Below are positions 4,933 to 49,074 of a DNA stretch of 64,000 bases, piece by piece (position 1 is the stretch's first letter; every line of letters begins with the position of its first letter). Origin of the DNA: Bacilli bacterium (GTDB lineage: Bacteria; Bacillota_I; Bacilli_A; JBKEDG01); assembly GCA_047975285.1 (NCBI GenBank), contig JBKEDG010000052.1, positions 1,415 through 65,414 on the forward strand, given 5' to 3'. Below the pieces are notes generated by a model. That model made no database searches. It saw only the letters and a list, made by a program, of their open reading frames with translations, and was not told where the DNA came from. The translations under genes and the position numbers were made by a program.

Positions 4933-4960
4933 TTTAAAATTAATTAAATCATTTTTTTAC
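4930..4960. terminator. Bidirectional hairpin between convergent proC and the adenosyltransferase gene
   Basis: TGATTTAA-AATTAATT-AAATCA inverted repeat then TTTTTTT. Confidence 0.45.
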
Positions 4961-5478
4961 ATTTTAACTTCAATAAGTTCAATATTATTTATGGTATTTT
5001 CATAACACGCAATAATGTAAATAAAATCTGACAATCTATTAATATATGTTAAGACATCACCATTGAAATCAAATTTTTTAGAAACTTTTACTATTTTTCT
5101 TTCACATTCTCGGCAAATACATCTACAAATATGTAAGTTGGAAGCTGTAATATTACCTCCTGGGAGTACAAAATGGTTGAAATTTTCAATTTTTGTTGTA
5201 AATTTATCAATACATTCCTCTAACCAGTCAATTTCACTGTATTTAACCTTATATTTTGATGAATCAGTCTGTGCTAAATCGTGACTAACGATAAATAGAT
5301 AGTTAGAAATTCTAATTAAGTATTCATCGTATTTTGGTTCAATACTTCTTACCAAATTTAGATGAGAATTAAGAGTGTCAATAGTTCCATATGCATCAAC
5401 TCTTAAATCATCTTTAAATACACGTTCACCAATTATACTAGTTGTTCCTTTATCACCTGTTTTTGTATAGACTTTCAT
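4957..5478 (-). CDS. pduO: ATP:cob(I)alamin adenosyltransferase, PduO-type
   Basis: MKVYTKTGDKGTTSIIGERVFKDDLRVDAYGTIDTLNSHL matches the PduO/MMAB N-terminal signature; AAGGAGAA SD; last gene of the riboswitch-led operon. Confidence 0.85.
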   Translation of the reverse strand: MKVYTKTGDKGTTSIIGERVFKDDLRVDAYGTIDTLNSHLNLVRSIEPKYDEYLIRISNYLFIVSHDLAQTDSSKYKVKYSEIDWLEECIDKFTTKIENFNHFVLPGGNITASNLHICRCICRECERKIVKVSKKFDFNGDVLTYINRLSDFIYIIACYENTINNIELIEVKM

Positions 5479-5488: not shown

Positions 5489-6238
5489 TTATTCCCATAA
5501 CTTTAATAAAGTTTGCATCCATTCTTTTACATCAACACCGTATACATTTTTTAGTCTAGAACTGGTTAGGATTTCTTTGCAGTTTCCATAATAGAAGTTA
5601 TGTTCATTGTCAATAAGCATAACTTTATCAGCATATTTTTGTACTAAGTTTAAATCATGTAATACAACAATGGCAATCTTATTTTCTTTTTTCACCCAGT
5701 TCTTAATAAAAGATAATATTTCAAATTGATGTTTTAAATCAAGGTGATTTGTTGGCTCATCTAACATAATAATTTTTGGGTCTTGTACAATAAGTCGTGA
5801 AATCATTACTCTTTGATATTGTCCACCACTAATTTGATCAATTCTTTGATATTTTACGTCATATAAATCTGTTAACTTTAATGCATCTGATATTACTTCA
5901 TCTTCAACATCTACCTTAAATAGACCATTACTTTTTGAGTATGCTCCCATTGACACTGTATCATATATTGAATATGAAAAATAATTTGCTTTATTTTGTG
6001 ATAACAATCCAACCACTTCACCTAATTTTTTATGTGTTAGGCTTTTTAAATCAGTTTTATTATACAAGATATTCCCTTCATAATCAATAGTGTTGTTAAT
6101 TGATTTAAGTAAAGTTGATTTTCCACAACCATTAGGGCCAACAATACATAAAATTTCGCCATCTTCAATTTTAAAAGAAAAGTTTTTTAGAATTTTTTTG
6201 TTTTTATACCCAGTACTTAAATTTTTTATTTGTAACAT
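5489..6238 (-). CDS. btuD: ABC transporter ATP-binding protein (BtuD/FecE-type, cobalamin/iron-siderophore class)
   Basis: Walker A GPNGCGKST, ABC signature LSGGQYQR, Walker B IIMLDEPTNHLD; TAATG stop/start overlap with the upstream permease. Confidence 0.85.
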   Translation of the reverse strand: MLQIKNLSTGYKNKKILKNFSFKIEDGEILCIVGPNGCGKSTLLKSINNTIDYEGNILYNKTDLKSLTHKKLGEVVGLLSQNKANYFSYSIYDTVSMGAYSKSNGLFKVDVEDEVISDALKLTDLYDVKYQRIDQISGGQYQRVMISRLIVQDPKIIMLDEPTNHLDLKHQFEILSFIKNWVKKENKIAIVVLHDLNLVQKYADKVMLIDNEHNFYYGNCKEILTSSRLKNVYGVDVKEWMQTLLKLWE

Positions 6239-7224
6239 TATTTTTTTCTCCTCATTATAAATATTATTGCAAAAAATGGTGCTCCAATTAAAGCAGTTAT
6301 TGCACCAACTGGAAGCTCAATAGGAGGTGCTATTGTTCTTGCAAGTAAATCCGTTGCAATTAAGAATCCGCCACCAATCATAATTGATAAAGGAATAGTA
6401 ATTACATGGTTAGATCCAAACACTTTTCTGCATATATGAGGAACAACAAGTCCAACAAATCCTATTACACCGCATATTGAAACAGCACAAGCGGTTAATA
6501 GTGATGTTAAAATCATAATTTCGTTCTTTAGTTTTTTTACATTAACACCTAGACTATGTGCATCATCTTCTCCAAAACTTAATATGTCAAGTTGTTTACT
6601 CCTAATGAATAAATATATTGAACATATTATAAAAAATGGTAAAATCAGAATAATATCTTGCCAACCTTTCATAGCAATAGAACCAGATAAAAATAACAGA
6701 ATTTGTTTTGAATTTTCTAAATTTAATAGCATAATTAAAGAAATAAGTGCACCAAGAAGTAGGGAAAGAATCATTCCTGTAAGCACAATAGTTTCATTTC
6801 CTAGATTATTATCAATTAACGATACAAATTTTATAATGAAATATATAGTGATAAGTGCACCTAAAAAAGCAATTATTTGTGTTGTGTAGATACCAAGAAA
6901 ATTTAATTTTAATACAATAGCAATTGTTGCAGAAAGTCCAGCACCATTTGATATTCCAAGTGTATATGGACTTGCTAGCGGGTTTTTTAATAACGATTGA
7001 ATACATAGACCACTGATGCTTAATGAACCTCCTACAATAAATGCAAGAAATACTCTTGGAAATCTTATTTTCAAAATTATTGTATTAACAATTGTATTGT
7101 CTCCAAGATCACTTATAGTTAGATTACTGCTCCCAAACATTACTCCTGCAAAAATAATTAGTATTAATACGATTAATGTTATTATGAATTTATTACTGTT
7201 TTTCATTATGGATAGCTTTTGCAA
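6238..7224 (-). CDS. btuC: ABC transporter permease, FecCD/BtuC family
   Basis: About 9 hydrophobic helices, FecCD-type composition, between a binding-protein gene and an ATPase gene; start uncertain (TTG at 7224 or ATG at 7206). Confidence 0.8.
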   Translation of the reverse strand: MQKLSIMKNSNKFIITLIVLILIIFAGVMFGSSNLTISDLGDNTIVNTIILKIRFPRVFLAFIVGGSLSISGLCIQSLLKNPLASPYTLGISNGAGLSATIAIVLKLNFLGIYTTQIIAFLGALITIYFIIKFVSLIDNNLGNETIVLTGMILSLLLGALISLIMLLNLENSKQILLFLSGSIAMKGWQDIILILPFFIICSIYLFIRSKQLDILSFGEDDAHSLGVNVKKLKNEIMILTSLLTACAVSICGVIGFVGLVVPHICRKVFGSNHVITIPLSIMIGGGFLIATDLLARTIAPPIELPVGAITALIGAPFFAIIFIMRRKK

Positions 7225-8059
7225 TTTCTTCCATTCCTATAATAAATTTACATGATGGTCTGCTTGTTTCATCTGTTGCAACTTTAAAAACTGTATTATT
7301 TTTAACAGCAGAAATATTATCAAATCCATCTCTACTTAATATTTCATCAATAGGATTGTCAATGTAATTTACGTTTGTGATTATAACATCCGGATTCTCT
7401 TCAATGATTGTTTCAGCGCTTGGAGAAAAATAATCTTTTTCCACATCATTAAAAATATTTTCACCGCCAACTAAAGTTATAATTTCATTTAAAAACGATG
7501 ATTTTCCTGGTGTATAAATGTTAGGAGCAGGTGCGATTTCCATATATACTTTCTTTATAGTTTTATTACTATATTTATTTGTAATATCCTCTACTTTAGT
7601 TTTTAACTCATCAACTAAATTATCGCTAGCATCAGTATTATCTAAAGCTTTTCCTACTTCTGAAATACCTAAATAAATATCGTCGATGCTATTGGCACCA
7701 GAAATAGGAATTACTTTAATGCCCTCATCTTCAAAAATAGAGTACCCTGACTTTTTATCTCCTTCATAATTGTAATCAGCAACAAGGATATGAGTTGGTT
7801 GCAGTAATAATATCTCTTCAGTATTTAAAGTCATAGCATCTAAAGTAGTTAAATCTTTTGTTTCATCAAAAATCGAATACGTATCAACAGCAATTAGTGT
7901 ATCTTCCATACCTAATCCAATAATGTTTTCTGTAATACTTGGAGCAAGACTTATAACTTTATAATCACTATAGTCCTTTTCATTCACTTCGCTTTTTTTA
8001 CTTTCACATCCAATAAATAATAAGGATATTGTAGTAAACAGTACTAATAATTTTTTCAT
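7193..8059 (-). CDS. btuF: Cobalamin/siderophore-type periplasmic binding lipoprotein (BtuF-like)
   Basis: AAGGAGGAAAAC SD before ATG at 8059; lipoprotein signal MKKLLVLFTTISLLFIGC; class III substrate-binding-protein composition; first gene after the cobalamin riboswitch. Confidence 0.8.
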   Translation of the reverse strand: MKKLLVLFTTISLLFIGCESKKSEVNEKDYSDYKVISLAPSITENIIGLGMEDTLIAVDTYSIFDETKDLTTLDAMTLNTEEILLLQPTHILVADYNYEGDKKSGYSIFEDEGIKVIPISGANSIDDIYLGISEVGKALDNTDASDNLVDELKTKVEDITNKYSNKTIKKVYMEIAPAPNIYTPGKSSFLNEIITLVGGENIFNDVEKDYFSPSAETIIEENPDVIITNVNYIDNPIDEILSRDGFDNISAVKNNTVFKVATDETSRPSCKFIIGMEEIAKAIHNEKQ

Positions 8060-8067
8060 GTTTTCCT

Positions 8068-8300
8068 CCTTAAAAATATAAAAACTTATTAACACCTAGA
8101 TGCTAATAAGTAAACAAATGTATACTTATTTTCTCGCACCCAGGAGATGAATAACATTTATATAGGCAGGTCTACTGGCTTAACTTCATCTTACTCTAGT
8201 ACCTTCCCGATTAATTAATAATCAGTGGTTATTACTATTTTATCAGTATCACAGTTGCTGGGGCAGCTTAGGATTACCTAATTCCCTTTTAAGTTTAAAC
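8068..8300 (-). promoter_or_regulatory. Cobalamin (AdoCbl) riboswitch with an intrinsic-terminator expression platform
   Basis: Minus strand reads AAAAGGGAATTAGGTAATCCTAAGCTGCCCCAGCAACTGTGA ... AAGCCAGTAGACCTGCC (B12 box) ... CTCCTGGGTGCGAG; downstream CTTATTA-12nt-TAATAAG hairpin plus TTTTTATATTTTT directly before the btuF RBS. Confidence 0.85.
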
Positions 8301-8413
8301 ACCTATATAACTATTTATTAAGTTTCATTTAAAATTATAATATCTATTTGCTAGGATGTCAAGTGTTGTATATTTTAATTATTTACAGTATAATGATATT
8401 AAGAGGTGAGAAA

Positions 8414-10054
8414 ATGAAAAAAAACAATAATTTAATAATAGGAATAATTATTGCAATTGCTTTGTTTATTTTTAATTATTTTGAATTAATAACAATTAAT
8501 CTTAGATATGATGGGTTTAGAACTATTGTAATGTTTGCAATATTTTTAATATTGCTTATAAGATATTTAAAAAAACATGGACTAGGTACATTAAGTGGTG
8601 GTTTTCAAAGTACAAATATTCCTACAAGAACAATGATGAATTTAAAATCTTGGAAAATATTTAGAATTTTTATAATTGTAATATTACTGAACTCTTTGAT
8701 AGCATTTTTAAGTGGTCCAGTCTTTTTTGCGTCTAGTTATGCAAAATTGATTGGAGATATAGAGACAAAAGAGTTTTCTAGCGATTTTAGTACTCCTAAG
8801 CTTGATTCATTACCTATTGTTGATACAAAATATGCAAAACTATTGGGCGATAAAAAACTAGGGTCAACATCTGGACTTGGAAGTGAGTTTCATGTGGGTG
8901 AATATACGGATATTGTGTATAATGATGAATTCTACATTGCAGCTCCTTTAGAGTATAATGGATTTTTTAAGTGGTTTAATAATAGAAAAAGTGGAACACC
9001 TGGATATATTTTAATTAATAAATCAACATCTAAAGTTGAACTTGTGACCGCTTTAAATGGTAAAGATATTAGTTTAAAGTATGTTGATAGTGCTTATTTA
9101 AATACTGACTTACATAGAAAAGCTTATTTTGGTGGGGGATGGAATAATGAAATAACTAAGCCATTTTTTGAACTTGATGAAGAGGGAATGCCATATTTTG
9201 TTTATCCAAAAACGAAAAAAACTATCGGTATAAGCGGTGGAGATGATGTATATCAAACTGTTGTTGTTAATGCTGTAAATGGAGAAGTGAATGTTTATAA
9301 TCTTGGAGAACAACCAAAGTGGGTGGATAATGTTTATTCATCAAATTTAATTTCACAACAATTAAATTATTATGGTAAGTATCAAAATGGATTTATAAAC
9401 TCAATTCTTGGGCAAAAAGGTTTATTAAGAACTACAGATGGTAATAGACATATTTATAATAAAGATGATCTTGCAGTTTATACAGGAATGACTAGTATTG
9501 GAACTGATGAATCTACAGTTGGAATGGCATTTGTAGATGTTACTAATAAAAATGCGAAAATGTATTCCTTAACTGGTGCTACAGAAGATGCTGCAAAAAA
9601 GTCTGCAGAAGGTAAAGTGCAAAATTTAGGTTACACTGCTTCTTTTCCAATACCTATTAATATTAATGGTGAAGGCGCATATTTTATTACCTTAAAAGAT
9701 GCGGAAGGATTAATTAAACAGTATGCTTTTGTAAATGTCAATGATTATTCTATTGTTGAAAATGCTGTTACAATTACCGAAGCATATAGTAACTATGTAG
9801 ATAAAATGGGCTATGATAATGTTGAAAATACTGATTCAATTGCTGAACTGGATGCAGAAGTTGTTAGAATTAATGACGAAATTGTCAATGGAGATAGTGT
9901 ATACGTTCTGTTAGTTAAAATAGATGGTGAAAATCATTTATATACATGGAAAAAACCTAATAGTGAAATGGTTTTAACAAATGTAGGTGATAAAGTTAAA
10001 ATAAAAGTCAATGAAGATAAGATAATTAGCTTTGATAATTTAGAAATTGAATAA
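8414..10054 (+). CDS. Hypothetical membrane protein (N-terminal TM helices plus large extracytoplasmic domain)
   Basis: AAGAGGTGAG SD before ATG 8414 (MKKNNNLIIG..); 3-4 N-terminal hydrophobic helices then about 430 aa polar, beta-rich domain; no family recognised. Confidence 0.55.
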   Translation: MKKNNNLIIGIIIAIALFIFNYFELITINLRYDGFRTIVMFAIFLILLIRYLKKHGLGTLSGGFQSTNIPTRTMMNLKSWKIFRIFIIVILLNSLIAFLSGPVFFASSYAKLIGDIETKEFSSDFSTPKLDSLPIVDTKYAKLLGDKKLGSTSGLGSEFHVGEYTDIVYNDEFYIAAPLEYNGFFKWFNNRKSGTPGYILINKSTSKVELVTALNGKDISLKYVDSAYLNTDLHRKAYFGGGWNNEITKPFFELDEEGMPYFVYPKTKKTIGISGGDDVYQTVVVNAVNGEVNVYNLGEQPKWVDNVYSSNLISQQLNYYGKYQNGFINSILGQKGLLRTTDGNRHIYNKDDLAVYTGMTSIGTDESTVGMAFVDVTNKNAKMYSLTGATEDAAKKSAEGKVQNLGYTASFPIPININGEGAYFITLKDAEGLIKQYAFVNVNDYSIVENAVTITEAYSNYVDKMGYDNVENTDSIAELDAEVVRINDEIVNGDSVYVLLVKIDGENHLYTWKKPNSEMVLTNVGDKVKIKVNEDKIISFDNLEIE

Positions 10055-10087
10055 TAAAAATGTAATCATTTAAAATGATTACATTTT
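10055..10087. terminator. Bidirectional perfect-palindrome terminator
   Basis: AAATGTAATCATTTTAAATGATTACATTTTTT between convergent genes. Confidence 0.6.
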
Positions 10088-10672
10088 TTATAAACTTTTA
10101 AGTGCAAATAATATTTCTTCCCAATTATGTCCTTTTCGATAGATTTCTAAAGTATCGATATTTATAACTGTAGAGGCTGTTTTTGAAAGTTGTTGATCAT
10201 TTTCAACGTATAAATCAACACCATTACCAAATATTTGATTTGCTGTTTTAATATCATAGGTTTCACTTTGACCACTTATGTTAGCACTACTTAAAACTAA
10301 TGGACCCGTTTCTTTTAATGCATCTAATAGTGAGGGATGGTTTGGAATTCTAACACCGGTTGTTATATAGCCTTTGTTTATTGAATATTTGGAATTTTTT
10401 GTCTTTCCAACAATAGTTATATCACCAGGTAAAAGTTTATTTAATACGCTGTAGTATTTTAGAGGAATTTCTATAATTTTGCACATAGTTTCAAAATTGT
10501 GACACACTATTGCTAATGGTTTTAACTTGCGTTTTTTTAACTCGATTATTTTTTTATAACTTTTTATATTGCAACCAACCCCATAAATTGTATCGGTAGG
10601 AATAACAATTATTTTATTGTTATTAGTATAAGATTTTATTAAATTAATATCTTTAATGTTACATTTATTCAT
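10088..10672 (-). CDS. tsaC: L-threonylcarbamoyladenylate synthase (YrdC/Sua5 family, YrdC-only form)
   Basis: IIVIPTDTIYGVGCN N-terminal YrdC motif, GVRIPNHPSLLDALKETGPLVLSSANISGQ; 194 aa. Confidence 0.75.
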   Translation of the reverse strand: MNKCNIKDINLIKSYTNNNKIIVIPTDTIYGVGCNIKSYKKIIELKKRKLKPLAIVCHNFETMCKIIEIPLKYYSVLNKLLPGDITIVGKTKNSKYSINKGYITTGVRIPNHPSLLDALKETGPLVLSSANISGQSETYDIKTANQIFGNGVDLYVENDQQLSKTASTVINIDTLEIYRKGHNWEEILFALKSL

Positions 10673-10807
10673 ATCTTCCCTCCTTTTTATTTATTATATC
10701 ATAAATATTCATTTTATATAATTTGATTTATTCAGAATAAGTAAATATATAAAAAATATAGAAATTTAATTATTATAATGGTATAATTTATTTAGGAGTG
10801 TGATTAT

Positions 10808-11257
10808 ATGAGAATTGCGATAGGTAGTGATCATGGTGGTTTTGAATTAAAAACTTTGATTAAAGAATTTTTAATTGATGAAGGCTATGAGGTATTTGAC
10901 TTTGGTTGCAAAACAAAAGATTCTGTTGACTATCCAAATTATGGTTTTGCTGTAGGAGAAGCTGTTGCTTCAAAGGAGTATGATCGTGGGATTGTTATAT
11001 GTGGTTCTGGGATTGGTATTAGCATTGCGGCAAATAAAGTAAAAGGAATTAGATGCGCACTTGTTAATGATGTATATGTGGCAAAAATGACAAGAATGCA
11101 TAATGATTCAAACGTTTTAGCAATGGGAGGAAGAATAATAGGAGCTGGCTTAGCAAAAGAGATTGTTAAAGTTTGGATTACGACAGACTATGATGGCGGA
11201 AGACATGATAAAAGATTAGAAATTATTAATGATTATGAAAAGAAGGGAGATAAATAA
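10808..11257 (+). CDS. rpiB: Ribose-5-phosphate isomerase B
   Basis: MRIAIGSDHGGFELK..., ICGSGIGISIAANKVKGIRCAL RpiB/LacAB signature; AGGAGTG SD; TGgTATAAT extended -10 upstream. Confidence 0.9.
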   Translation: MRIAIGSDHGGFELKTLIKEFLIDEGYEVFDFGCKTKDSVDYPNYGFAVGEAVASKEYDRGIVICGSGIGISIAANKVKGIRCALVNDVYVAKMTRMHNDSNVLAMGGRIIGAGLAKEIVKVWITTDYDGGRHDKRLEIINDYEKKGDK

Positions 11258-11278
11258 CATTAGTTATTTAACATGTGA

Positions 11279-11905
11279 ATGGGAAATTTAGTTATTTTTG
11301 ATCATCCACTAATTAGCCATAAATTGACTTATATTAGAGATGAGAATACGAAACATTTTGAGTTTAAAAGAGCTATTGATGAAGTTACGTTGCTTATGGC
11401 CTACGAAGTAACTAGAGATTTACCACTTAGAGAAAAAGTGATTAATACACCACTTGAAAAAATGACGGCTCATGTTCTTGAAAAAAAAGTTGTTATTGTT
11501 CCTATAATGAGAGCAGGACTTGGGATGACTGATGGGATATTATCACTAATTCCTACTGCAAGAGTAGGACATGTAGGGTTATATAGAGATGAAACAACTT
11601 TAAAGCCAATGGAATATTATAAAAAATTTCCAAAAGAAATATCTGATAGTACAGTTTTTATAGTTGATCCTATGTTAGCAACTGGTGGTAGTGTTATTGC
11701 TACAATTGATATTGTGAAAGCAACAGGTGCAACTGACATTAGATACATTGGTATTGTTGGTTCACCAGAAGGGGTTAATGCGTTACAAAAGGCACATGAA
11801 GATGTTGATATCTATTTAGCAGCACTTGATAGAAATTTAAATGAGAATGGATATATTGTACCTGGACTTGGAGATTGTGGAGATAGAATTTTTGGAACAA
11901 AGTAA
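11279..11905 (+). CDS. upp: Uracil phosphoribosyltransferase
   Basis: [21 protein letters not shown]-binding [30 protein letters not shown]-terminus; conserved position directly upstream of the atp operon. Confidence 0.9.
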
Positions 11906-11927
11906 TGGATATAAGTCGTTGAAATAT

Positions 11928-12098
11928 ATGTCAATCCCTACAATATTTATTAGTAATCTTGCTATATATATAATTATAGGGTTGTGGATTGATAAAAAAT
12001 TTGATATTGGTAATTATTTAGTGTTATTTATAATTTTTGGATTACTAATGTCATGCTATTCTACTTATAAATTATTGAGAAGTCTTGATGAAAATTAG
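11928..12098 (+). CDS. Small hydrophobic protein upstream of the atp operon (AtpZ/AtpI-like candidate)
   Basis: 57-aa ORF from ATG 11928 (MSIPTIFISNLAIYIIIGLWI..), two predicted TM helices; the 11841 upstream extension would overlap upp and is discounted. Confidence 0.35.
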   Translation: MSIPTIFISNLAIYIIIGLWIDKKFDIGNYLVLFIIFGLLMSCYSTYKLLRSLDEN

Positions 12099-12498
12099 AT
12101 TAGATTTATTTAATTATCCAAAACAATCGTATATAATCTATCAAATCATTTTATTTGGTCTCGGATTCACAGTTATAACTATAATAAACGTATTTACAAT
12201 CATGAATTATTTTGTATTTATTGTAGGATATTTTAGAGGATGGTTAGTTATATCTATAGGTTTTTATATCATTGTTTATAGTTCAGACAAAATTTTATTT
12301 GTTTCTAAAAATGAAGCTCATGCAAAATCAATATCACTATTATTTTTTATAATCAGGTATTTTATATATAGTTTTATATGTGTTTTATCAATTCGTTTAT
12401 TTAATGCAAATATTATTACAATGTTTCTAGGGTTATTATCATTAAAAATAATAATATTTGTTGATAATTTTTTACAAAAGAATGGGGGTGAAATATAA
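12088..12498 (+). CDS. atpI: ATP synthase protein I-like multi-TM protein
   Basis: 4 predicted TM helices, immediately 5' of atpB; position analogous to atpI. Confidence 0.45.
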   Translation: MKIRLDLFNYPKQSYIIYQIILFGLGFTVITIINVFTIMNYFVFIVGYFRGWLVISIGFYIIVYSSDKILFVSKNEAHAKSISLLFFIIRYFIYSFICVLSIRLFNANIITMFLGLLSLKIIIFVDNFLQKNGGEI

Positions 12499-13193
12499 TG
12501 TTAATGAAAATTATTTTAACTGAAGTGAGTAAGCCTGTGGGCATTTCACTTGAGTTTGCTAACAAGGAATACTTTATTCATCCAGGTATATTTTATAGTT
12601 ATGTGATTGCACTCTTTATCTGTTTGTTTTGCATACTTGTTGCTTATAAAGTAAAAAGGGCAGATCCAAGTAAACGACCCAAAGGTTTGGTATTCTTTGC
12701 AGAATACTTTGTAACTTCAATAAATAATTTTACAAAACAAAATTTAAGTGAAGGAAGAAGGTCACTTGCACCATATCTTGGAATGTTAGCTATGTACCTA
12801 CTTATATCCAATTTAAGTGGTTTGCTATCATTTGTGCCACCAACTTCGGATTTTAATGTAACTTTAACATTAGCGTTAATTACAATTGTAATGGCACAGA
12901 TTTATGGAATAAAAGTAGATGGAGTTAAAAATTATTTCAGGTCATTTACAGAACCATATGTGTTCTTGTTACCAAATAATCTTTTGGACTTGATAACTAC
13001 GCCATTGTCAATGGCACTGCGTTTATTTGGTAATGTTTTAGCAGGCGCAATCATTATGTCACTTGTGTATAATGCATTAGGATTTATTTCAGTATTAGTG
13101 GCACCTGTCTTTCACGCATATTTTGACGTGTTTGCGGGCGGAATACAAACGTTTGTATTCGTATTATTAACAGCGGTAACAGTAGAAAAATAA
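12498..13193 (+). CDS. atpB: F0F1 ATP synthase subunit a
   Basis: LALRLFGNVLAGAIIM arginine-containing motif, 5-6 TM helices. Confidence 0.85.
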   Translation: MLMKIILTEVSKPVGISLEFANKEYFIHPGIFYSYVIALFICLFCILVAYKVKRADPSKRPKGLVFFAEYFVTSINNFTKQNLSEGRRSLAPYLGMLAMYLLISNLSGLLSFVPPTSDFNVTLTLALITIVMAQIYGIKVDGVKNYFRSFTEPYVFLLPNNLLDLITTPLSMALRLFGNVLAGAIIMSLVYNALGFISVLVAPVFHAYFDVFAGGIQTFVFVLLTAVTVEK

Positions 13194-13542: not shown

Positions 13543-14034
13543 ATGCCTGATGTTTATATAATTCCTGATCCACTACAAATGGTATTGCAACTAATTGCAA
13601 CATTTATTATGTTTTTAGCTGTTAAAAAGTTTTTGTGGGGATCAGTTACGAAATTTATTGAAGATAAGAAAGAACTTTCTGTTGCAGATATAAACGAAGC
13701 TAAGCAAAAAAATGAGGAAGCACAGAAATTACTTGATTCTGCTCATAAAACAGTAAGTAATGCAAGGCAAAAAGCGAATGATATTGTTAGTCAATCCAAA
13801 AAAAGTGCTGATGCAGTACATAAAAGAATTATTAGTGATGCGCAAAAAGAAGTTGTATATTTGAAAAATAATGCAAAAGAAAGTATTGAACAAGAAAAAT
13901 TGCAATTTTATGATGGTTTAAAAAAAGAGGTTGTTGATTTGACAATGGTTGCAACTTCTAAGATTATTGAATCAGAAATAAGTGAAAGCAAACAAAAATC
14001 AATTGTTGATTCTGTAATAGATGGTGTATCATAA
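13543..14034 (+). CDS. atpF: F0F1 ATP synthase subunit b
   Basis: Single N-terminal TM then long charged coiled-coil; operon position. Confidence 0.8.
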   Translation: MPDVYIIPDPLQMVLQLIATFIMFLAVKKFLWGSVTKFIEDKKELSVADINEAKQKNEEAQKLLDSAHKTVSNARQKANDIVSQSKKSADAVHKRIISDAQKEVVYLKNNAKESIEQEKLQFYDGLKKEVVDLTMVATSKIIESEISESKQKSIVDSVIDGVS

Positions 14035-14573
14035 TGAGTGTAATTAGTAGCAGATATAGTGAAGCTTTGTTTGATCTTGCTTGTGAAGAAAAATGTATTG
14101 AAGATATATACGAATCGTATAAAGTAATTACTTCTATTTTTAGATTACAAAGTGATTTAATAGACGTATTATCTCATCCTGAAATAGTTTTAGAAGATAA
14201 AATAAATATTGTAAAGGATGCTTTTTTAAATACAAATAAGAATTTATTAAATTTTATTTGTGTTCTTATTGAAAAAAGGCGATTAAAAGAAGTCTACAAT
14301 ATTTTTGATGATTTTGAAATGATTTATAATGCACATTTTAATATTTCAGTTGCAAAAGTATATACAGTTGAAAAATTGAGTGATAGTCAAGTTTTAAGTT
14401 TGAAAAGTAAATTGGGGCTTAAATTAAATAAAGAAATTCATATTGATAATGTAATTGATAAGAGTTTGATAGGTGGGATGAAAATAGTGATTGATAATCA
14501 TGTTATGGATCATTCTATTAAAACAAAAATCAGTGAATTATCAAATGAGTTACATAAAATACAAATAAGATGA
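14034..14573 (+). CDS. atpH: F0F1 ATP synthase subunit delta
   Basis: SRYSEALFDLA OSCP N-terminus, ATGA overlap with atpF, operon position. Confidence 0.8.
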   Translation: MSVISSRYSEALFDLACEEKCIEDIYESYKVITSIFRLQSDLIDVLSHPEIVLEDKINIVKDAFLNTNKNLLNFICVLIEKRRLKEVYNIFDDFEMIYNAHFNISVAKVYTVEKLSDSQVLSLKSKLGLKLNKEIHIDNVIDKSLIGGMKIVIDNHVMDHSIKTKISELSNELHKIQIR

Positions 14574-14583
14574 TTGGGGTTGA

Positions 14584-16104
<1,521 letters not shown>

Positions 16105-16117
16105 GGAGGGGTAATAT

Positions 16118-16936
16118 ATGCCATCCTTATTAGATACAAATAATCGTATAAAATCGGTTGAATCAACGCTTAAAATTACAAGTGCAATGAAACTTGTAGC
16201 TACTGCTAAACTTAGGGGAGCAAGAATTGCGTATGAAGAAAGTAAAGAATATGCTGATGGAATTAATAAAGTAATTAGCTCTGTTAAGCAATGTTTAGAT
16301 GCTGAATTTTATATAAAAAAAAGAACTAGTGGCAAAGATTTATATGTTGTAATTGGAAGTGAAATTGGGCTTTGTGGTGGATATAATACTAACATGTTTA
16401 AATTATTTGAGGATAAAACAGACTGCTTATTTGTAACATTAGGGAAAAAAGCAGTTTCATATTTTGAACATCGTAGTCAATATGAAGTTATTTATTCTAA
16501 AATTGATATTTCTGATCATCCTAGTTTACATAAAACAAAAGAACTTGGGAATCTCTTGTTAAAAATGTATGATAATATGGAATTAAAATCATTGAATATA
16601 GTCTATACTAAATATGTTAATTCCGTTACGTTTGAGCCAAGTATTATGAAAGTGTTCCCACTTGATAAAAATGAAGAAAACAGGATTATTGATTTTGAGC
16701 CAAGTAGTTCTCAAATTTTAAAAGTAGGATTACCAAGATATGTAGATGCATTAATTTATGTTTCAATGAAGGAGTCTCTTGTAAGTGAATACGCAAGCAG
16801 AAGACTTGCAATGGAAAATGCTACAGATAATGCTAGTGAATTGATTGACAATCTACTTATAGCAAGAAATCGTGCTAGACAATCTGCAATTACTCAAGAA
16901 ATTTCTGAGATTGTTGCTGGAGCCGAAGCTTTATAA
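16118..16936 (+). CDS. atpG: F0F1 ATP synthase subunit gamma
   Basis: IKSVESTLKITSAMKLVATAKL N-terminus, TAAGGAGGGG SD. Confidence 0.9.
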   Translation: MPSLLDTNNRIKSVESTLKITSAMKLVATAKLRGARIAYEESKEYADGINKVISSVKQCLDAEFYIKKRTSGKDLYVVIGSEIGLCGGYNTNMFKLFEDKTDCLFVTLGKKAVSYFEHRSQYEVIYSKIDISDHPSLHKTKELGNLLLKMYDNMELKSLNIVYTKYVNSVTFEPSIMKVFPLDKNEENRIIDFEPSSSQILKVGLPRYVDALIYVSMKESLVSEYASRRLAMENATDNASELIDNLLIARNRARQSAITQEISEIVAGAEAL

Positions 16937-16951
16937 GGAGGATTTTTATAA

Positions 16952-18343
<1,392 letters not shown>

Positions 18344-23384: not shown

Positions 23385-23693
23385 ATGGTTAAAGTAATTA
23401 CAGCTGAAGAATTATCAAATTTAGATAATAATGGATCTATTTTAGTTGATTTTTTTGCAGATTGGTGTGGCCCATGTCAGCAGTTAGGTCCAATATTAGA
23501 TGAAGTTTCAAATGAAGTGGATACTCCTATTTACAAAATTAATGTTGATGATCCTGCTTCAAAAAAACTTGCAATGAAAAACAAGGTAATGTCTATTCCT
23601 ACAATGGTAATGTTTAAAAATGGTGAATCAGTTGCAACAACAGGATTTTTAGGTAAAGAAGATTTAATAAAGTTTATTAATGAAAATAAATAA
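23385..23693 (+). CDS. trxA: Thioredoxin
   Basis: WCGPCQ active site, 102 aa. Confidence 0.9.
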   Translation: MVKVITAEELSNLDNNGSILVDFFADWCGPCQQLGPILDEVSNEVDTPIYKINVDDPASKKLAMKNKVMSIPTMVMFKNGESVATTGFLGKEDLIKFINENK

Positions 23694-23759
23694 ACTATGA
23701 TTAGAAATTAGTAAATATAATTATTTATAGAAAGTCAATGATGATGGAAATTTGGCAAT

Positions 23760-23928
23760 GAATATTTATTAAGAACATCTATGAGTTAATAGAAGAAAGT
23801 AATTTTACTAGTAGAACTATTCGTAAAACTGCGTTAAAGTTATGAGAGTGTACTTGTGTACAAATTAAGGTGGTACCGCGAAATAATTTCGTCCTTATAT
23901 ATTTAATATATAGGGATTTTTTTAAGGA
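23760..23928 (+). promoter_or_regulatory. T-box riboswitch leader of asnS
   Basis: AATTAAGGTGGTACCGCG at 23863-23880 (near-consensus T-box), then TCCTTATATAT/ATATATAGGGA terminator hairpin plus TTTTTTT immediately before the asnS RBS. Confidence 0.75.
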
Positions 23929-23934
23929 GAAAAT

Positions 23935-25320
23935 ATGGATTTAAGAGAGTTAGTAAAAAAATATAAAGATTTGGAAGGTCAAACTGTAAATGTTTCTGGC
24001 TGGATTAGAAATAACCGTGACCAAAAAGAATTTGGATTTTTAGAACTATTTGATGGCACTGCTTTTGGGAGTATTCAAATAGTTTATTCAGATGATAATA
24101 CAAATAATTTTGAAGAAATTAGTAAATATAGAATTGGTAGTGCTCTTGAAATTGAGGGTGAAGTAGCTTTAACTCCTAATGCTAAACAACCGTTTGAAAT
24201 AATAGCAAAAAAAGTAGTTTTATGTGCTGATTCAGGTGAAGATTATCCAATTCAACCAAAGAGACATACAAGAGAATTTTTAAGAGAAAAAGCACATTTA
24301 AGAGCTCGTACGCTGTTATTTAACACAGTTTTTCGTGTTAGAAATGAACTGACTTATGCAGTGCATAAATATTTTCAAGAACATGGTTTTGTTAATTGTC
24401 CTTCTCCAATTATTACTAAAGTTGATGCAGAGGGAGCTGGAGAAATGTTTGGTGTTTCTGTTCTTGAGCATAAAAACCCACCACTAGATAAAGAAGGAAA
24501 TGTAGATTACAATAAAGATTTTTTTGGTGGGAAGAGTAGTTTAACTGTTACTGGGCAGTTACAAGCGGAGATATATGCGATGTCTTTTAAAAAAACATAT
24601 ACATTTGGTCCTACTTTTAGAGCAGAAAATTCTAATACAAGTAAACATGCCGCTGAGTTTTGGATGATTGAACCAGAGATAGCATTTGCTGATAATGAAG
24701 AAAATATGAGAATTGCGGAAGATTTTGTTAAGAACGTTATTTCTTATGTTTTAAATAATTGTGATGAAGAGTTGAAATGGTTAGATAAGTTTGTTGAAAA
24801 AGGGTTGATTGATAAATTAAAAGATGTAGTTAGCAAAGATTTTTTAAGAGTTACGTATACACAGGCACAAGAAATATTAAAAAATGCTGATGTTGAATTT
24901 GAATTTCCTATTGGATTTGGAAATGATTTGGCAAGTGAACATGAAAAATATCTAACGGATATTCATTTTAATGCTCCCGTTTTTGTGACTGATTGGCCAA
25001 AAGAAATGAAAGCTTTTTATATGAGATTGAATTCTGATAATAAAACTGTTGCTGGAATGGATTTACTTGTTCCAAGAGTTGGGGAATTAATAGGTGGAAG
25101 TCAACGTGAAGAAAGATATGATCATCTAATTAAGCGTATGAAAGAGATGAATGTACCAAGAAAAGATTTGGAGTGGTATTTAGATTTAAGAAAATATGGT
25201 GGTTGTTATCATTCTGGTTTTGGATTAGGATTTGAAAGATTGGTAATGTATGTTACAGGAATTGAAAACATTAGAGATGTTCATCCATTTCCAAGGACAC
25301 CTAACAATTGTGAATTTTAG
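23935..25320 (+). CDS. asnS: Asparaginyl-tRNA synthetase
   Basis: Class II motifs FGPTFRAENSNTSKHAAEFWMIEPE, GGSQREER, GFGLGFERL; N-terminal OB fold; 461 aa. Confidence 0.9.
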   Translation: MDLRELVKKYKDLEGQTVNVSGWIRNNRDQKEFGFLELFDGTAFGSIQIVYSDDNTNNFEEISKYRIGSALEIEGEVALTPNAKQPFEIIAKKVVLCADSGEDYPIQPKRHTREFLREKAHLRARTLLFNTVFRVRNELTYAVHKYFQEHGFVNCPSPIITKVDAEGAGEMFGVSVLEHKNPPLDKEGNVDYNKDFFGGKSSLTVTGQLQAEIYAMSFKKTYTFGPTFRAENSNTSKHAAEFWMIEPEIAFADNEENMRIAEDFVKNVISYVLNNCDEELKWLDKFVEKGLIDKLKDVVSKDFLRVTYTQAQEILKNADVEFEFPIGFGNDLASEHEKYLTDIHFNAPVFVTDWPKEMKAFYMRLNSDNKTVAGMDLLVPRVGELIGGSQREERYDHLIKRMKEMNVPRKDLEWYLDLRKYGGCYHSGFGLGFERLVMYVTGIENIRDVHPFPRTPNNCEF

Positions 25321-25321
25321 T

Positions 25322-26047
25322 ATGGAGAGAGTACAAAAAGTTATTGCTCATAGTGGATATTGCTCGCGTAGAAAGGCAGAAGATTTAATACTATTAGGTA
25401 AAGTAAAAGTAAATGGAGAAATAATTACCAAATTGGGATTTAAAGTTAATCCTTCAGATGTTATTATAGTTGAAGGAAAATTAATTGTTCGTGAAGATCC
25501 AGTATATTTTATTTTTAATAAGCCCAAAGGATTTTTGTGTTCAACTGTAAGTGAAGATAATAAACCATCTATAATGGACTTTTTTAGTGATGTTGAAGAG
25601 AGAATTTATCCAGTTGGAAGATTGGATTTTAATACAAGTGGGTTACTTTTACTTACAAACGATGGTGAATTTGCAAATTTGATGATGCATCCTAGTTATA
25701 AAATTGCCAAGAAATATTCTTTAAGATGTAAAGGTAAATTAAAGGGTAGTGAAATTTTTAAATTAGAGAATGGAATTATTGTTGATGGGTATAAGACAAA
25801 AAGAGCTAAAATAAAAGTTAAGAAATATGATAGAATGAAAGATGATACACTTTTAGATATTACTATTTATGAGGGAAGAAATCAACAGATTAGAAAAATG
25901 TTTTTAAATATTGGACACGGCGTTAAACAGTTGAAAAGAATACAATATGGGAAACTTAATTTAGATGGAGTCGCACAAGGAGAATATCGAAAATTAAAAG
26001 TTCATGAGCTTAAGGAATTGTATAATATTGCAAAAAATGGTATATAA
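25322..26047 (+). CDS. rluB: rRNA pseudouridine synthase (RluB/RsuA family)
   Basis: S4 domain MERVQKVIAHSGYCSRRKAEDLI, catalytic PVGRLDFNTSGLLLLTNDG. Confidence 0.8.
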   Translation: MERVQKVIAHSGYCSRRKAEDLILLGKVKVNGEIITKLGFKVNPSDVIIVEGKLIVREDPVYFIFNKPKGFLCSTVSEDNKPSIMDFFSDVEERIYPVGRLDFNTSGLLLLTNDGEFANLMMHPSYKIAKKYSLRCKGKLKGSEIFKLENGIIVDGYKTKRAKIKVKKYDRMKDDTLLDITIYEGRNQQIRKMFLNIGHGVKQLKRIQYGKLNLDGVAQGEYRKLKVHELKELYNIAKNGI

Positions 26048-26071
26048 TTCAAAATGTTAGTATTGTAGTAA

Positions 26072-27607
<1,536 letters not shown>

Positions 27608-27621
27608 ATTACGGGGGTATT

Positions 27622-30120
27622 ATGAAATATAATAATGAAATAATAATGAAACTAAATGATGATATAAATAAATATTTTCTTAATATTTTTCCTGTTGATG
27701 AAACTATGCATTTAACTCATGAAGGCGTGAGTAGGCTTGTAATGATTGATAGATATGCTCAAAAGGACAAAAGTTTAAAATCGCTTTCTGAGGGAGATAT
27801 TGTTATTACAATTGTCAAAGATGATTTGAATTTTCCAACGAGAGGAATTGGGAAAGTCATTAAATTATCATGGTCAACAAACGAAGCAATTATTGAACTA
27901 GAGGAAGAATTTTGTGGTTCATTAGAAGATGAAGAGGAAATTAGTACAAGAAGAATTAAAAGAAGTTTAAGTGTAGTTGAAAAGCCATTAGAATTGTATT
28001 ATGAACAAATTGCAAAGCGTGTTGCTTTTGCCCTTAGTAGAGAAGAGAGAAGTGAAGATTTAAGAGAATCTACATTTATGGATTTTTATGAAGTGCTAAG
28101 TGATATGTCATTTGTACCAGCGGGAAGAGTATTATTTGGTGCAGGTAGTGGAAATGAAGTAACATTTTTCAATTGTTTTGTAATGCCGATGATACAAGAC
28201 TCAAGAGGTGGTATTAGCGAACATCGTAAGGAAGTTATGGAAATAATGTCTCGTGGAGGAGGAGTAGGAACTAATGGTAGTTCACTTCGTCCAAGACATT
28301 GTCGTGCTAAAACTGTTGGTGGTAGAAGTAGCGGTGCAGTTAGTTGGTTAAATGATTTGAGTGGGCTAACTCATTTAGTAGAGCAGGGTGGTAGTCGTCG
28401 TGGAGCACAAATGATTATGATGGCTGATTGGCACCCTGATATTATTGAGTTTATTATTTCAAAAATGCAAAACCCTAAAATATTAAGATTTTTAATTGAA
28501 AATTCTAAAAATGATTTAATTGTTGAAACAGCAAAAGAAAAGTTAGCGTTTATTCCATTAACTTCTATTGAAAAAAAATTATATAGAGAGATTATTGATT
28601 CTGAAAATACTGTACCAAGTGATGTATATGAAGAAGCAACTAGTAAACTTAGAGATGGTGGAACTTATAATGTAAATGAGCCTGATTTTTTAACCGGTGC
28701 AAATATTTCTGTTAATATTACTTCTGAATTTATGGAGGCAGTTTTTAAAGATGATATTTATGAATTAAGGTATCCAGATTTAGATGCTTTGACTGATGAA
28801 CAAAAAGAATTTTATGATGAAAAATGGCATGAGATTGGTGATGTTAGAGAATGGGAAAGTTTAGGCTATCCAGTCAAAACATACTATGAAATTGAGGCCC
28901 GTGAATTATGGGATTTGATAAATGTTTGTGCTACATATAGTGCAGAACCAGGAGTGTTTTTCATTGATAATGCCAATGATATGACTAATGCAGTTGCTTA
29001 TGACCAAAAAATTGTTGCTACGAATCCTTGTGGTGAACAACCGCTTGCACCGTATTCTGTGTGTAATTTAGCAGCAATTAATCTCTCAAATGTTGTTGAT
29101 AAAGCAACAGGAGAAATTAATTATGAAAAACTAAAGCGAATTATTAGAATTGGTGTTAGAATGCAAGATAATGTAATAGATGTTACACCTTATTTCTTAG
29201 AATCTAATAAAGAACAAGCTCTTGGAGAAAGAAGAGTTGGTCTAGGTGTTATGGGACTTCATGATTTGTTAATATGGAATAAGAAAAAATATGGTAGCGT
29301 AGAGGGTAATGAGGTTGTAAGTAAAGTTATGCAAATTATTGCAGAAACTGCTTATAACACAAGTATTGATTTAGCTAAAGAAAAAGGAAGTTTTCCATTT
29401 TTAATTAATAGAGATAAACTATTAACATCAGGATACATAAAAAAATTACCTGATGAGATTAAGGAAAAAATCAAAAAAGAGGGTATTAGAAATTCACATT
29501 TATTAACCATTGCTCCTACTGGATCTACAGGTACTATGGTAGGTGTTTCTACTGGACTTGAACCATATTTTTCATTTAAGTATTTTAGAAGTGGAAGGCT
29601 TGGGAAATTTATTGAAGTTAATGCTAAAATTGTTGATGAATGGTTAAAATATAATCCTCAGTATAATGAGAATAATTTACCCAATTATTTTATTTCCGCA
29701 ATGGAATTGTCTGCAGAAGAACATGTAGAAGTTCAATGTGTGATTCAGTATTGGATTGATTCTTCGATATCTAAGACAGTTAATGCTCCAAAAGGATATA
29801 GTGTTAAAAACGTTGAAAAAATATATGAAAAACTATATTTAGGCGGTGCTAAGGGAGGTACTGTTTATGTTGATGGATCACGCGAAAGCCAAGTTTTATC
29901 TCTAACAAATGAAGATATAGAGATTACTGAACAACTTGACTTAGGATTGAATGTTAAAAATAATGATGTTAGTTTGGATACTGTTGTTACAAAGCAAGAC
30001 CAAGATGTTGGTGTAGAAATAAATAATATTTGCCCAATTTGTAAAGAAGGAAGAGTTATTGATTCTGGTGGCTGCAATACTTGTAGTAATTGTGGAGCTC
30101 AACTTAAGTGTGGTTTATAA
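27622..30120 (+). CDS. nrdJ: Adenosylcobalamin-dependent ribonucleotide reductase (class II, NrdJ) with C-terminal Cys4 zinc ribbon
   Basis: TNPCGEQPLAPYSVCNLAAINL active-site/thiyl region, IDRYAQKD N-terminus (compare RDRYFMKD of class II enzymes), no ATP-cone, C-terminal CPICKEGRVIDSGGCNTCSNCG. Confidence 0.85.
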   Translation: MKYNNEIIMKLNDDINKYFLNIFPVDETMHLTHEGVSRLVMIDRYAQKDKSLKSLSEGDIVITIVKDDLNFPTRGIGKVIKLSWSTNEAIIELEEEFCGSLEDEEEISTRRIKRSLSVVEKPLELYYEQIAKRVAFALSREERSEDLRESTFMDFYEVLSDMSFVPAGRVLFGAGSGNEVTFFNCFVMPMIQDSRGGISEHRKEVMEIMSRGGGVGTNGSSLRPRHCRAKTVGGRSSGAVSWLNDLSGLTHLVEQGGSRRGAQMIMMADWHPDIIEFIISKMQNPKILRFLIENSKNDLIVETAKEKLAFIPLTSIEKKLYREIIDSENTVPSDVYEEATSKLRDGGTYNVNEPDFLTGANISVNITSEFMEAVFKDDIYELRYPDLDALTDEQKEFYDEKWHEIGDVREWESLGYPVKTYYEIEARELWDLINVCATYSAEPGVFFIDNANDMTNAVAYDQKIVATNPCGEQPLAPYSVCNLAAINLSNVVDKATGEINYEKLKRIIRIGVRMQDNVIDVTPYFLESNKEQALGERRVGLGVMGLHDLLIWNKKKYGSVEGNEVVSKVMQIIAETAYNTSIDLAKEKGSFPFLINRDKLLTSGYIKKLPDEIKEKIKKEGIRNSHLLTIAPTGSTGTMVGVSTGLEPYFSFKYFRSGRLGKFIEVNAKIVDEWLKYNPQYNENNLPNYFISAMELSAEEHVEVQCVIQYWIDSSISKTVNAPKGYSVKNVEKIYEKLYLGGAKGGTVYVDGSRESQVLSLTNEDIEITEQLDLGLNVKNNDVSLDTVVTKQDQDVGVEINNICPICKEGRVIDSGGCNTCSNCGAQLKCGL

Positions 30121-30125
30121 TTAAA

Positions 30126-30165
30126 AAAAGCAAGGTGAACTGAAACATTCACCTTGCTTTTTAAA
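30126..30165 (+). terminator. Intrinsic terminator after nrdJ
   Basis: GCAAGGTGAA-CTGAAACA-TTCACCTTGC 10-bp stem then TTTTT. Confidence 0.7.
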
Positions 30166-49049: not shown

Positions 49050-49074
49050 ATATTTAATATTATTTATGATTGAG

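Follow-up and report, generated by a model that had tools for sequence, protein, structure and literature searches.

Dependence of DNA synthesis on vitamin B12 has been recognised ever since the B12 bioassay with Lactobacillus leichmannii, and the L. leichmannii enzyme is a monomeric NTP reductase (RTPR). NrdJ of Thermotoga maritima, a dimeric class II ribonucleotide reductase (RNR), has structures in the PDB (1XJE, 3O0N/3O0O). The Stackebrandtia nassauensis enzyme, NrdJd, ends in six cysteines (C920/923/933/936/939/945), for which a zinc site and a redox shuttle pair have been proposed (Loderer et al. 2017, PMC5704485). In L. delbrueckii, a B12 auxotroph, nrdJ lies in an nrdJ-cbrS-cbrT-pduO cluster (Santos et al. 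2018, PMC5997447). The finger-loop motif is NPCXE in class II and NLCXE in class I, with NPCGE the predominant motif of class II, and the C-terminal zinc finger occurs on short tails as well as on long ones (Burnim et al. 2022, PMC9669993). Cobamide-independent RNRs are the commoner kind, and 30% of bacterial genomes hold cobamide-dependent and cobamide-independent RNRs together (PMC6461909).

We analysed a 64-kb stretch of DNA from an uncultured Bacilli lineage (hereafter the window), in which nrdJ (27622..30120, + strand) is predicted to encode a class II, adenosylcobalamin (AdoCbl)-dependent RNR of 832 aa. The gene is a single uninterrupted ORF with an ATG start. At a GC content of about 30%, the stop frequency is near 0.08 per codon by our own arithmetic, so a frame of 832 codons would stay open by chance with a probability near 1e-30. 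The protein scores 1349 bits against the NCBIfam equivalog NF005991 (cutoff 854), a full-length match (residues 2-832 on model positions 7-858), and 562.6 bits against TIGR02504 (cutoff 399.95), while every class I RNR model fell under its cutoff. Pfam places the ten-stranded alpha/beta barrel of RNRs (PF02867) at residues 184-749 (E=3e-107). The full-length AF2 model reaches only a moderate pLDDT of 71; its top Foldseek matches are RNR structures with probability 1.00, T. maritima NrdJ first, including AdoCbl complexes, and T. maritima NrdJ is also the closest PDB sequence. Judged by these matches, the gene is a genuine, intact class II nrdJ, as the earlier note had proposed.

The NF005991 (PRK08115) family, from which this NrdJ shows no substantive difference, occurs in Bacilli in Erysipelotrichaceae, Haloplasma, Spiroplasma eriocheiris and many Bacillaceae. 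Hundreds of database proteins that are 60-87% identical are already named vitamin B12-dependent ribonucleotide reductase. The one place where the exact protein turned up was a 3-kb Logan contig (SRR30067258), and the closest match among species-representative genomes, 87% identical, is in the metagenome-assembled genome Bacilli bacterium VLC_076.

The enzyme shares the barrel fold, the NPCGE loop and the lack of an ATP-cone with T. maritima NrdJ, although the two are only about 25% identical and the protein described here is longer by about 75 N-terminal residues, an SH3-like barrel among them, and by about 95 residues between positions 285 and 414. Alignment to 1XJE matched the catalytic Cys, Asn and Glu residues throughout, with T. 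maritima C134/N320/C322/E324/C333 corresponding to C185/N468/C470/E472/C481. Cys185 (28174..28176, + strand) and Cys481 (29062..29064, + strand) are the first and second cysteines of the active-site redox pair. The finger loop N468-P-C470-G-E472 (29023..29037, + strand) carries the class II signature NPCGE with the putative thiyl-radical cysteine, Cys470. All five residues are invariant among 35 homologues.

These conserved residues lead us to infer established NrdJ chemistry for the protein, and AdoCbl binding, the substrate (NDP or NTP) and the reductant are presumed in the same way. Enzyme-bound AdoCbl would turn Cys470 of the finger loop into a thiyl radical. Ribonucleotide reduction, assisted by Asn468 and Glu472, would then leave a Cys185-Cys481 disulfide, which a flexible 72-residue C-terminal tail would reduce again, its zinc finger presenting a redox pair. 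The tail itself would be reduced by an external donor, possibly the thioredoxin whose gene lies 4 kb upstream.

The earlier note had described this tail as a CxxC...CxxC zinc ribbon. The C-terminal cysteines are present, but there are six rather than four, which points to the zinc finger plus redox-active pair of NrdJ enzymes. The module (C804, C807, C818, C821, C824 and C830; 30031..30111, + strand) is spaced C-x2-C-x10-C-x2-C-x2-C-x5-C, and all six cysteines are invariant in the 35 homologues. The spacing is that of S. nassauensis NrdJd, except that the first long gap there is x9 (C-x2-C-x9-C-x2-C-x2-C-x5-C). By analogy with that enzyme, residues 804/807/821/824 are predicted zinc ligands and 818/830 a predicted redox shuttle pair. 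The two enzymes belong to different subclasses, however, and the S. nassauensis cysteine-rich domain (CRD) spans 150-220 aa, whereas here the barrel is followed by only about 72 residues (761-832). Residues 754-794 are predicted to be disordered, and this NrdJ has neither a CRD of that length nor the IscU-like domain that Burnim et al. (PMC9669993) describe before the finger. Since the finger is known with both tail lengths, we read the tail as the short variant. In the S. nassauensis CRD, turnover with TCEP needed all six cysteines, and neither the organism's own thioredoxins nor its own glutaredoxin reduced the enzyme (PMC5704485). Reduction of the tail by an external donor is unsettled even in the model enzyme, and the role of trxA (thioredoxin, PF00085; 23385..23693, + strand), the candidate physiological reductant in the window, is therefore speculative.

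At the other end of the protein, an SH3-like beta-barrel is modelled as an insertion in the N-terminal helical region (codons 46-123; 27757..27990, + strand). The ATP-cone profile PF03477 has no match in NrdJ (Pfam), and the modelled N terminus consists of helices and the SH3-like barrel, so the absence of an ATP-cone reported in the earlier note is borne out. We considered a degenerate ATP-cone for the N-terminal extension and rejected it on the modelled fold. Because it has no ATP-cone, the enzyme would be without a dATP on/off switch of the ATP-cone kind. A monomeric NrdJm/RTPR was likewise ruled out: the monomeric RTPR model TIGR02505 gave 64.9 bits, under its cutoff of 340, and the segment from GGGVG (212-216) to the QGGSRRGA loop (255-262) is short, in the style of dimeric enzymes and without the long loop-1 insertion of RTPR.

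The gene is the last of a housekeeping string of asnS-like, rluB-like, lysS and nrdJ genes. The stop codon of lysS (26108..27607, + strand; stop at 27605-27607) is separated from the nrdJ ATG by 14 nt, which hold a ribosome-binding site, GGGGG (27613..27617, + strand). From this spacing, lysS and nrdJ are probably co-transcribed. We found no terminator between them; the sole terminator found follows nrdJ, an intrinsic hairpin with a 16-bp stem (30125..30162), flanked by an A-run and, on the opposite side, a T-run, between the convergent nrdJ and rpsD. A T-box leader (RF00230, 94.7 bits; 23688..23899, + strand) precedes the asnS-like gene and is a possible upstream control point for the asnS-rluB-lysS-nrdJ string. 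The lysS-nrdJ adjacency is kept in the relatives L001 and L084 (87% and 79%), and L084 keeps the whole order mutS2-trxA-asnS-rluB-lysS-nrdJ. A search for the NrdR box ACACWAWATATWTWGTGT with up to 3 mismatches found 0 against 2.5 expected, and a promoter scan around nrdJ was uninformative (42 matches, 44 expected). Since the gene has neither a riboswitch of its own nor an NrdR box, constitutive expression is suggested.

On the opposite strand, the window carries a putative B12 import and activation operon. Its cobalamin riboswitch aptamer (8148..8321, - strand) matches RF00174 at 106.8 bits over the full length of the model (1-189/189; gathering score 31.5), with the B12-box AGCCAGTAGACCTGC at 8180, and a consensus sigma-70 promoter, TTGACA-17-TATAAT, lies upstream (8334..8362, - strand). 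Directly downstream on the same strand, the first gene, starting at 8095 or 8059, encodes a BtuF-like substrate-binding lipoprotein (7193..8095; NF002894 BtuF, E=3e-19, under cutoff), whose true start is likely Met13 (nt 8059) in view of a lipobox, LFIG-C. There follow, tightly spaced on the - strand, a BtuC/FecCD-type ABC permease (6238..7224; best NCBIfam match BtuC NF007081, 223 bits, under the equivalog cutoff), a BtuD-like ABC transporter ATPase (5489..6238; profile match under the equivalog cutoff) and, after a 10-nt gap, the last gene, for a PduO-type ATP:cob(I)alamin adenosyltransferase (4957..5478). PduO scores 165.2 bits against TIGR00636 (cutoff 108.45), has the N-terminal TKTGDKGTT motif and matches PDB PduO-type adenosyltransferases at E about 1e-33. 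The three importer proteins match Btu models under their equivalog cutoffs, beside heme and siderophore models; it is the riboswitch, not the protein matches, that suggests corrinoid as the substrate. From the riboswitch to the start of nrdJ the distance is 19.3 kb. The earlier note had placed a riboswitch-led btuFCD-pduO operon about 20 kb from nrdJ and had seen no cobalamin biosynthesis genes in the window; both statements hold, with no cob/cbi genes among the window ORFs.

Together these features would form a salvage route, in which the BtuFCD-like importer, under riboswitch control, takes up corrinoid and the co-transcribed PduO turns it into AdoCbl. AdoCbl would feed NrdJ and would also close the operon through the riboswitch. 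In the window, pduO and nrdJ are 22 kb apart, on opposite strands and in separate transcription units, so the case for their link comes from relatives and from biochemical reasoning. Among related Erysipelotrichaceae, about 14 loci (L006-L012, L016, L017, L019, L022, L023, L025 and L029) have pduO as the next gene upstream of nrdJ, on the same strand. Anaerorhabdus furcosa ATCC 25662 is one example of the pduO-nrdJ arrangement. Nine related loci have a B12-box about 1.6 kb upstream of nrdJ, and in two of the nine, L006 and L011, a full riboswitch was confirmed. The L011 cluster includes two small proteins, of 173 aa and 147 aa, that match nothing in Pfam or NCBIfam; the 173-aa protein emerged as a CbrT homologue in a PDB sequence search, and the 147-aa protein is labelled 'cbrS-like' by position only. 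The same locus encodes a further protein with a B12-binding domain 2 kb from nrdJ.

The inferred logic is that of L. delbrueckii/leichmannii, namely corrinoid import, adenosylation by PduO and use of AdoCbl by NrdJ. In L. delbrueckii the gene set forms one cluster, as in the Erysipelotrichaceae relatives, whereas here nrdJ is 19-22 kb from the importer and pduO. The importers also differ, ECF-CbrT in L. delbrueckii and a BtuFCD-type ABC system here, and L. delbrueckii is a known auxotroph, whereas the present organism is known here from 64 kb of genes alone. Given the adjacency of pduO and nrdJ in relatives and the L. delbrueckii precedent, the earlier suggestion that the operon's PduO supplies AdoCbl to NrdJ appears well founded, and the comparative support from relatives appears to be new. 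The explanation that joins these observations, which we hold with high confidence from the sequence evidence, is a functional dimeric-type NrdJ at the end of a housekeeping string, likely receiving its AdoCbl by way of the BtuFCD-like/PduO operon.

How far the organism would depend on this supply turns on its other RNRs. As previously noted, nrdJ is the only RNR gene in the window: Pfam and NCBIfam scans of the window ORFs of at least 100 aa, minus five short ones overlapping longer genes, found no NrdA, B, D, E, F, G, I or R, and six-frame tblastn of the window with E. coli NrdD/G/E/F/H/I queries returned nrdJ itself only. The absence of NrdB/F and NrdG from these 64 kb also fits class II, which needs neither a radical-generating partner subunit nor an activase. 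Of 80 related loci, 79 show no second RNR up to 10 kb from nrdJ; in L033, a complete class I RNR stands 1.4 kb away. Many Bacillaceae with an NrdJ of the NF005991 family carry class Ib NrdEF, and most anaerobic Firmicutes encode NrdDG. On balance, we expect a second RNR elsewhere in the genome, most likely a class III NrdDG.

NrdJ would then be one of at least two RNRs, and B12 salvage would improve or broaden dNTP synthesis, for example across oxygen levels, while being non-essential. We regard this as the probable state of affairs, because class I and class II RNRs stand together in L033, the NrdJ family is widespread among organisms that carry other RNRs, and comparative-genomics base rates point the same way (PMC6461909). 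It has to be reconciled with the lack of a second RNR in the window or within 10 kb in the 79 loci, which are a small share of each genome, and with the lack, in the 64 kb searched, of a cobalamin riboswitch before an alternative RNR, an arrangement that usually marks redundancy conditional on B12.

The opposite reading takes NrdJ as the only RNR in an organism that makes no cobamide, so that DNA synthesis would need scavenged corrinoid, as in the B12-requiring L. leichmannii/delbrueckii. Several observations fit it: NrdJ is the only RNR within 64 kb, the same 64 kb are without cob/cbi genes, nrdJ shares a housekeeping operon with lysS in a lineage-conserved arrangement with no conditional regulator visible, import and adenosylation have a dedicated riboswitch-controlled operon, and L. 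delbrueckii offers a precedent (PMC5997447). The window probably makes up no more than a few percent of the genome, however, a class I RNR adjoins nrdJ in L033, many Bacillaceae have an NrdJ of the same family alongside class Ib NrdEF, and both RNR types are found in 30% of bacterial genomes (PMC6461909), which makes obligate dependence rather doubtful. A bolder version, in which NrdJ is the sole RNR, cobamide synthesis is absent, replication runs on neighbours' corrinoids and the SH3-like barrel, as a module for regulation or oligomerisation not described before, takes the place of the ATP-cone, strikes us as unlikely.

Returning to the supply of AdoCbl to NrdJ, we also weighed whether btuFCD-pduO mainly serves other cobamide enzymes (ethanolamine or propanediol lyases, mutases, MetH or QueG), with NrdJ an incidental user. 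PduO-type adenosyltransferases do serve several AdoCbl enzymes, pduO and nrdJ are unlinked here, and the relative L011 has its additional B12-binding-domain protein near nrdJ. No such enzyme, nor any other recognisable B12 enzyme besides NrdJ, was found among the window ORFs with Pfam and NCBIfam, though, and in relatives pduO is attached to nrdJ specifically rather than to eut, pdu or mutase genes; to our knowledge, MetH and QueG need no adenosylation. We therefore consider this reading distinctly improbable. NrdJ is very probably a main client of the BtuFCD-PduO module, and further AdoCbl enzymes may be encoded elsewhere, outside the 64 kb. A decayed or catalytically inactive RNR paralogue is hardly a tenable reading of a full-length gene with no disruptions, invariant catalytic and tail cysteines, scores far above the equivalog cutoffs, a good ribosome-binding site and a terminator.

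The type of dependency, the NrdJ family, the zinc-finger tail and the association of transporter, PduO and NrdJ have all been described before, so the finding mainly confirms that the gene is correctly annotated. Modest additions are the SH3-like N-terminal insert conserved across the NF005991 NrdJ family and the riboswitch-cbrT-pduO-nrdJ cluster that recurs in Erysipelotrichaceae. By analogy with the textbook precedent, NrdJ is plausibly supplied by the operon for B12 import and activation nearby. Should NrdJ prove to be the only RNR, corrinoid auxotrophy would reach as far as DNA replication in this organism. Such a case would illustrate cross-feeding dependence cleanly in an uncultured lineage of Bacilli and would also give a practical hint for cultivation, the addition of B12 or deoxyribonucleosides.

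The open reading frame at 27622..30120 (+) is the only long one there, starting at ATG and encoding 832 aa. At the composition of the window (GC ~24-34%), stop codons should occur at ~0.08 per codon, so that an open 832-codon frame is essentially impossible by chance (~1e-30 by our own arithmetic). Its product, NrdJ, matched the NCBIfam equivalog NF005991 ("vitamin B12-dependent ribonucleotide reductase") across residues 2-832 with 1349 bits (cutoff, 854), passed TIGR02504 (NrdJ_Z; 563 bits; cutoff, 400), and fell far under all cutoffs of the NCBIfam class I ribonucleotide reductase (RNR) models. It likewise fell far short of the monomeric RTPR model (TIGR02505, 65 bits; cutoff, 340). Pfam identified the barrel domain of RNRs (PF02867; E=3e-107) and, weakly, an all-alpha N-terminal domain. 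Thermotoga maritima NrdJ (1XJE) is the nearest solved structure by sequence, and the same enzyme, AdoCbl complexes included, was the first fold match to the AlphaFold model (mean pLDDT 71).

We aligned NrdJ to this characterized enzyme and found the catalytic Cys, Asn, and Glu residues in place, bearing out the class II assignment of the earlier note. T. maritima C134, N320, C322, E324, and C333 correspond to C185, N468, C470, E472, and C481. The finger loop reads NPCGE, the signature that predominates in class II, against NLCXE in class I enzymes (PMC9669993). Across 35 aligned family members (63-87% identity), these five residues and NPCGE do not vary. Judged by sequence, nrdJ encodes a class II RNR that is intact, with none of the catalytic or tail residues missing, and NrdJ is an ordinary, correctly recognized member of a well-populated family. 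Compared with the T. maritima enzyme, this family has ~95 additional residues after the first aligned barrel segment, before the alignment resumes (residues ~285-414; window ~28477-28863); mainly helix, plus two short sheets, is predicted for them.

The C-terminal cysteine motif described earlier as a CxxC...CxxC zinc ribbon is present, but the array comprises six cysteines rather than two pairs: C804, C807, C818, C821, C824, and C830 (C-x2-C-x10-C-x2-C-x2-C-x5-C). This is essentially the array of Stackebrandtia nassauensis NrdJd (C920/923/933/936/939/945), in which four cysteines were modeled as zinc ligands and two as a redox pair, and all six were needed for turnover with TCEP (PMC5704485). 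By analogy, C804/C807/C821/C824 would bind zinc and C818/C830 would shuttle electrons. With ~72 residues and a linker predicted to be disordered, the tail is a short-tail variant, without an IscU-like domain. The six-Cys finger is a real feature but a common one, as 71% of dimeric class II RNRs, of either tail length, have a zinc finger (Burnim et al., PMC9669993). Pfam found no ATP-cone in NrdJ, as the earlier note had stated. An SH3-like beta-barrel insert in the N-terminal helical region (residues 46-123) is kept across the family, with D59, D68, P72, G75, and G77 invariant; we found no mention of it in one survey of RNR insertions (the term "SH3" does not occur there).

A 14-nt gap, which contains a GGGGG ribosome-binding site, separates nrdJ from the stop codon of lysS; the gene ends 5 nt before an intrinsic terminator (30125-30162; 16-bp stem) common to nrdJ and the convergent rpsD. 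We found no riboswitch of its own, no NrdR box, and no other conditional signal for nrdJ; this placement in a housekeeping operon is a point in favor of a primary role. The order mutS2, trxA, T-box, asnS-like, rluB-like, lysS, nrdJ (window 23385-30120) is kept in a 79% relative (L084, 3236-12511), and lysS-nrdJ-rpsD-ezrA-iscS-thiI is kept in an 87% relative. The T-box (23688-23899) begins at the trxA stop codon and could in principle gate transcription reaching nrdJ.

In the riboswitch-led operon noted earlier as lying 20 kb away, the riboswitch is 19.3 kb from nrdJ. This full-length cobalamin riboswitch (8148..8321, -; RF00174, 107 bits), with a consensus promoter immediately 5' of it, heads four tightly packed genes, encoding a substrate-binding lipoprotein with a lipobox (BtuF/heme/siderophore class), a BtuC/FecCD-type permease, an ABC ATPase, and a PduO-type adenosyltransferase (TIGR00636, 165 bits; cutoff, 108). 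PduO has the TKTGDKGTT motif and matched PDB PduO enzymes at E ~1e-33. All three transporter proteins score under the Btu equivalog cutoffs, so the corrinoid specificity of the importer rests on the riboswitch. Divergent from the riboswitch promoter is a 568-aa ORF (8348-10054, +) with N-terminal transmembrane segments, no Pfam or NCBIfam match, and no homologue near nrdJ in relatives. Just past the pduO end, between metG and proC, a 476-aa ORF without a family match (1394-2824, -) adjoins a gene for a 257-aa DUF2785 protein (3414-4187, +).

Pfam or NCBIfam scans covered window ORFs of at least 100 aa, minus five short ones overlapping longer genes, and showed housekeeping genes only: metG, proC, rpiB, upp, the atp operon, rnhB, ferritin, mutS2, trxA, asnS-like, rluB-like, lysS, nrdJ, rpsD, ezrA, iscS, thiI, purA, folD, ppdK, cmk, der, gpsA, era, recO, pheST, obg, nadE, and others. 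A second T-box leader (49057-49254, +; 99.5 bits) lies directly 5' of pheS-pheT, an ordinary arrangement. As previously proposed, nrdJ is the only RNR gene in the window and cobalamin biosynthesis genes are absent from it: these scans detected no second RNR, NrdR, NrdI, or NrdG, and no cob/cbi genes or other recognizable cobamide enzymes, and six-frame tblastn of the window with E. coli NrdD/G/E/F/H/I matched only nrdJ (NrdE, E=5e-14).

It is doubtful that NrdJ is the sole RNR of the organism. Obligate dependence of dNTP synthesis on scavenged corrinoid, the main inference of the earlier note, would require the rest of the genome to lack both a further RNR and a cobamide pathway, and is unlikely. 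Indirect evidence leans towards RNR redundancy being common. Other RNR classes co-occur with this family: 1.4 kb from its nrdJ, an Erysipelothrix MAG (L033) encodes a complete class I RNR (13950-17057, minus strand), with an alpha subunit scoring 761 bits on TIGR02510 and a beta subunit with an ATP-cone. This NrdJ family is also widespread among Bacillaceae. Among species-representative genomes the best match (87%) is MAG Bacilli bacterium VLC_076; for the exact protein, the sole record is a 3-kb contig. Other cobamide-binding proteins exist in relatives: on an Erysipelotrichaceae chromosome (L011), a 207-aa protein with B12-binding domain PF02310 is encoded 2 kb downstream of nrdJ (14408-15031, minus strand).

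Comparison of 80 loci encoding NrdJ relatives supports the proposal that NrdJ is a client of the B12 module; the interpretation in the earlier note, taken as a whole, is partly supported. In 14 of them, all from Erysipelotrichaceae/Anaerorhabdus genomes including cultured Anaerorhabdus furcosa ATCC 25662, a pduO homologue lies directly 5' of nrdJ on the same strand. A B12-box lies ~1.6 kb upstream of nrdJ in nine loci; for L006 and L011, Rfam confirmed that it is part of a full riboswitch. The L011 cluster (8248-12511), from a clade of Erysipelotrichaceae MAGs, has nrdJ as its distal gene, after a riboswitch with terminator hairpin and genes for a 147-aa exported protein, a 173-aa homologue of the vitamin B12 ECF S-component CbrT (PDB 6FNP chain A, E=2.6e-9; a membrane protein), and PduO. 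The same layout is suggested in L006, L009, L010, L016, L020, L021, L029, and L032. We detected no terminator between pduO and nrdJ in the L011 cluster; the 78 nt separating them may include an extended -10 promoter (TGATAAAAT). The same gene set forms the nrdJ-cbrS-cbrT-pduO cluster of L. delbrueckii, a B12 auxotroph in which PduO is described as making AdoCbl "accessible for NrdJ" (PMC5997447). The window organism has the same functional parts but rearranged: pduO stays with a BtuFCD-type importer, and nrdJ has moved into the mutS2-trxA-asnS-rluB-lysS-nrdJ string, which the 87% and 79% relatives have kept.

Established NrdJ and PduO biochemistry suggests how these parts would work together. 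Corrinoid would be taken up by the importer and adenosylated by PduO, and AdoCbl bound to NrdJ would generate a thiyl radical on Cys470. Oxidation of C185 and C481 would follow, and the C818/C830 pair on the zinc finger would re-reduce them. The ultimate reductant might be the thioredoxin encoded 4 kb upstream of nrdJ, a speculative assignment; the redoxins of S. nassauensis failed to reduce the NrdJd of that species (PMC5704485). AdoCbl would also bind the riboswitch, repressing uptake and adenosylation. The tie of NrdJ to B12 uptake and adenosylation is an already established paradigm. Should the genes of L011-type clusters share a transcript, an RNR that depends on AdoCbl would itself be under the control of an AdoCbl riboswitch; the usual logic runs the other way, with B12 riboswitches repressing isozymes that do not need B12.
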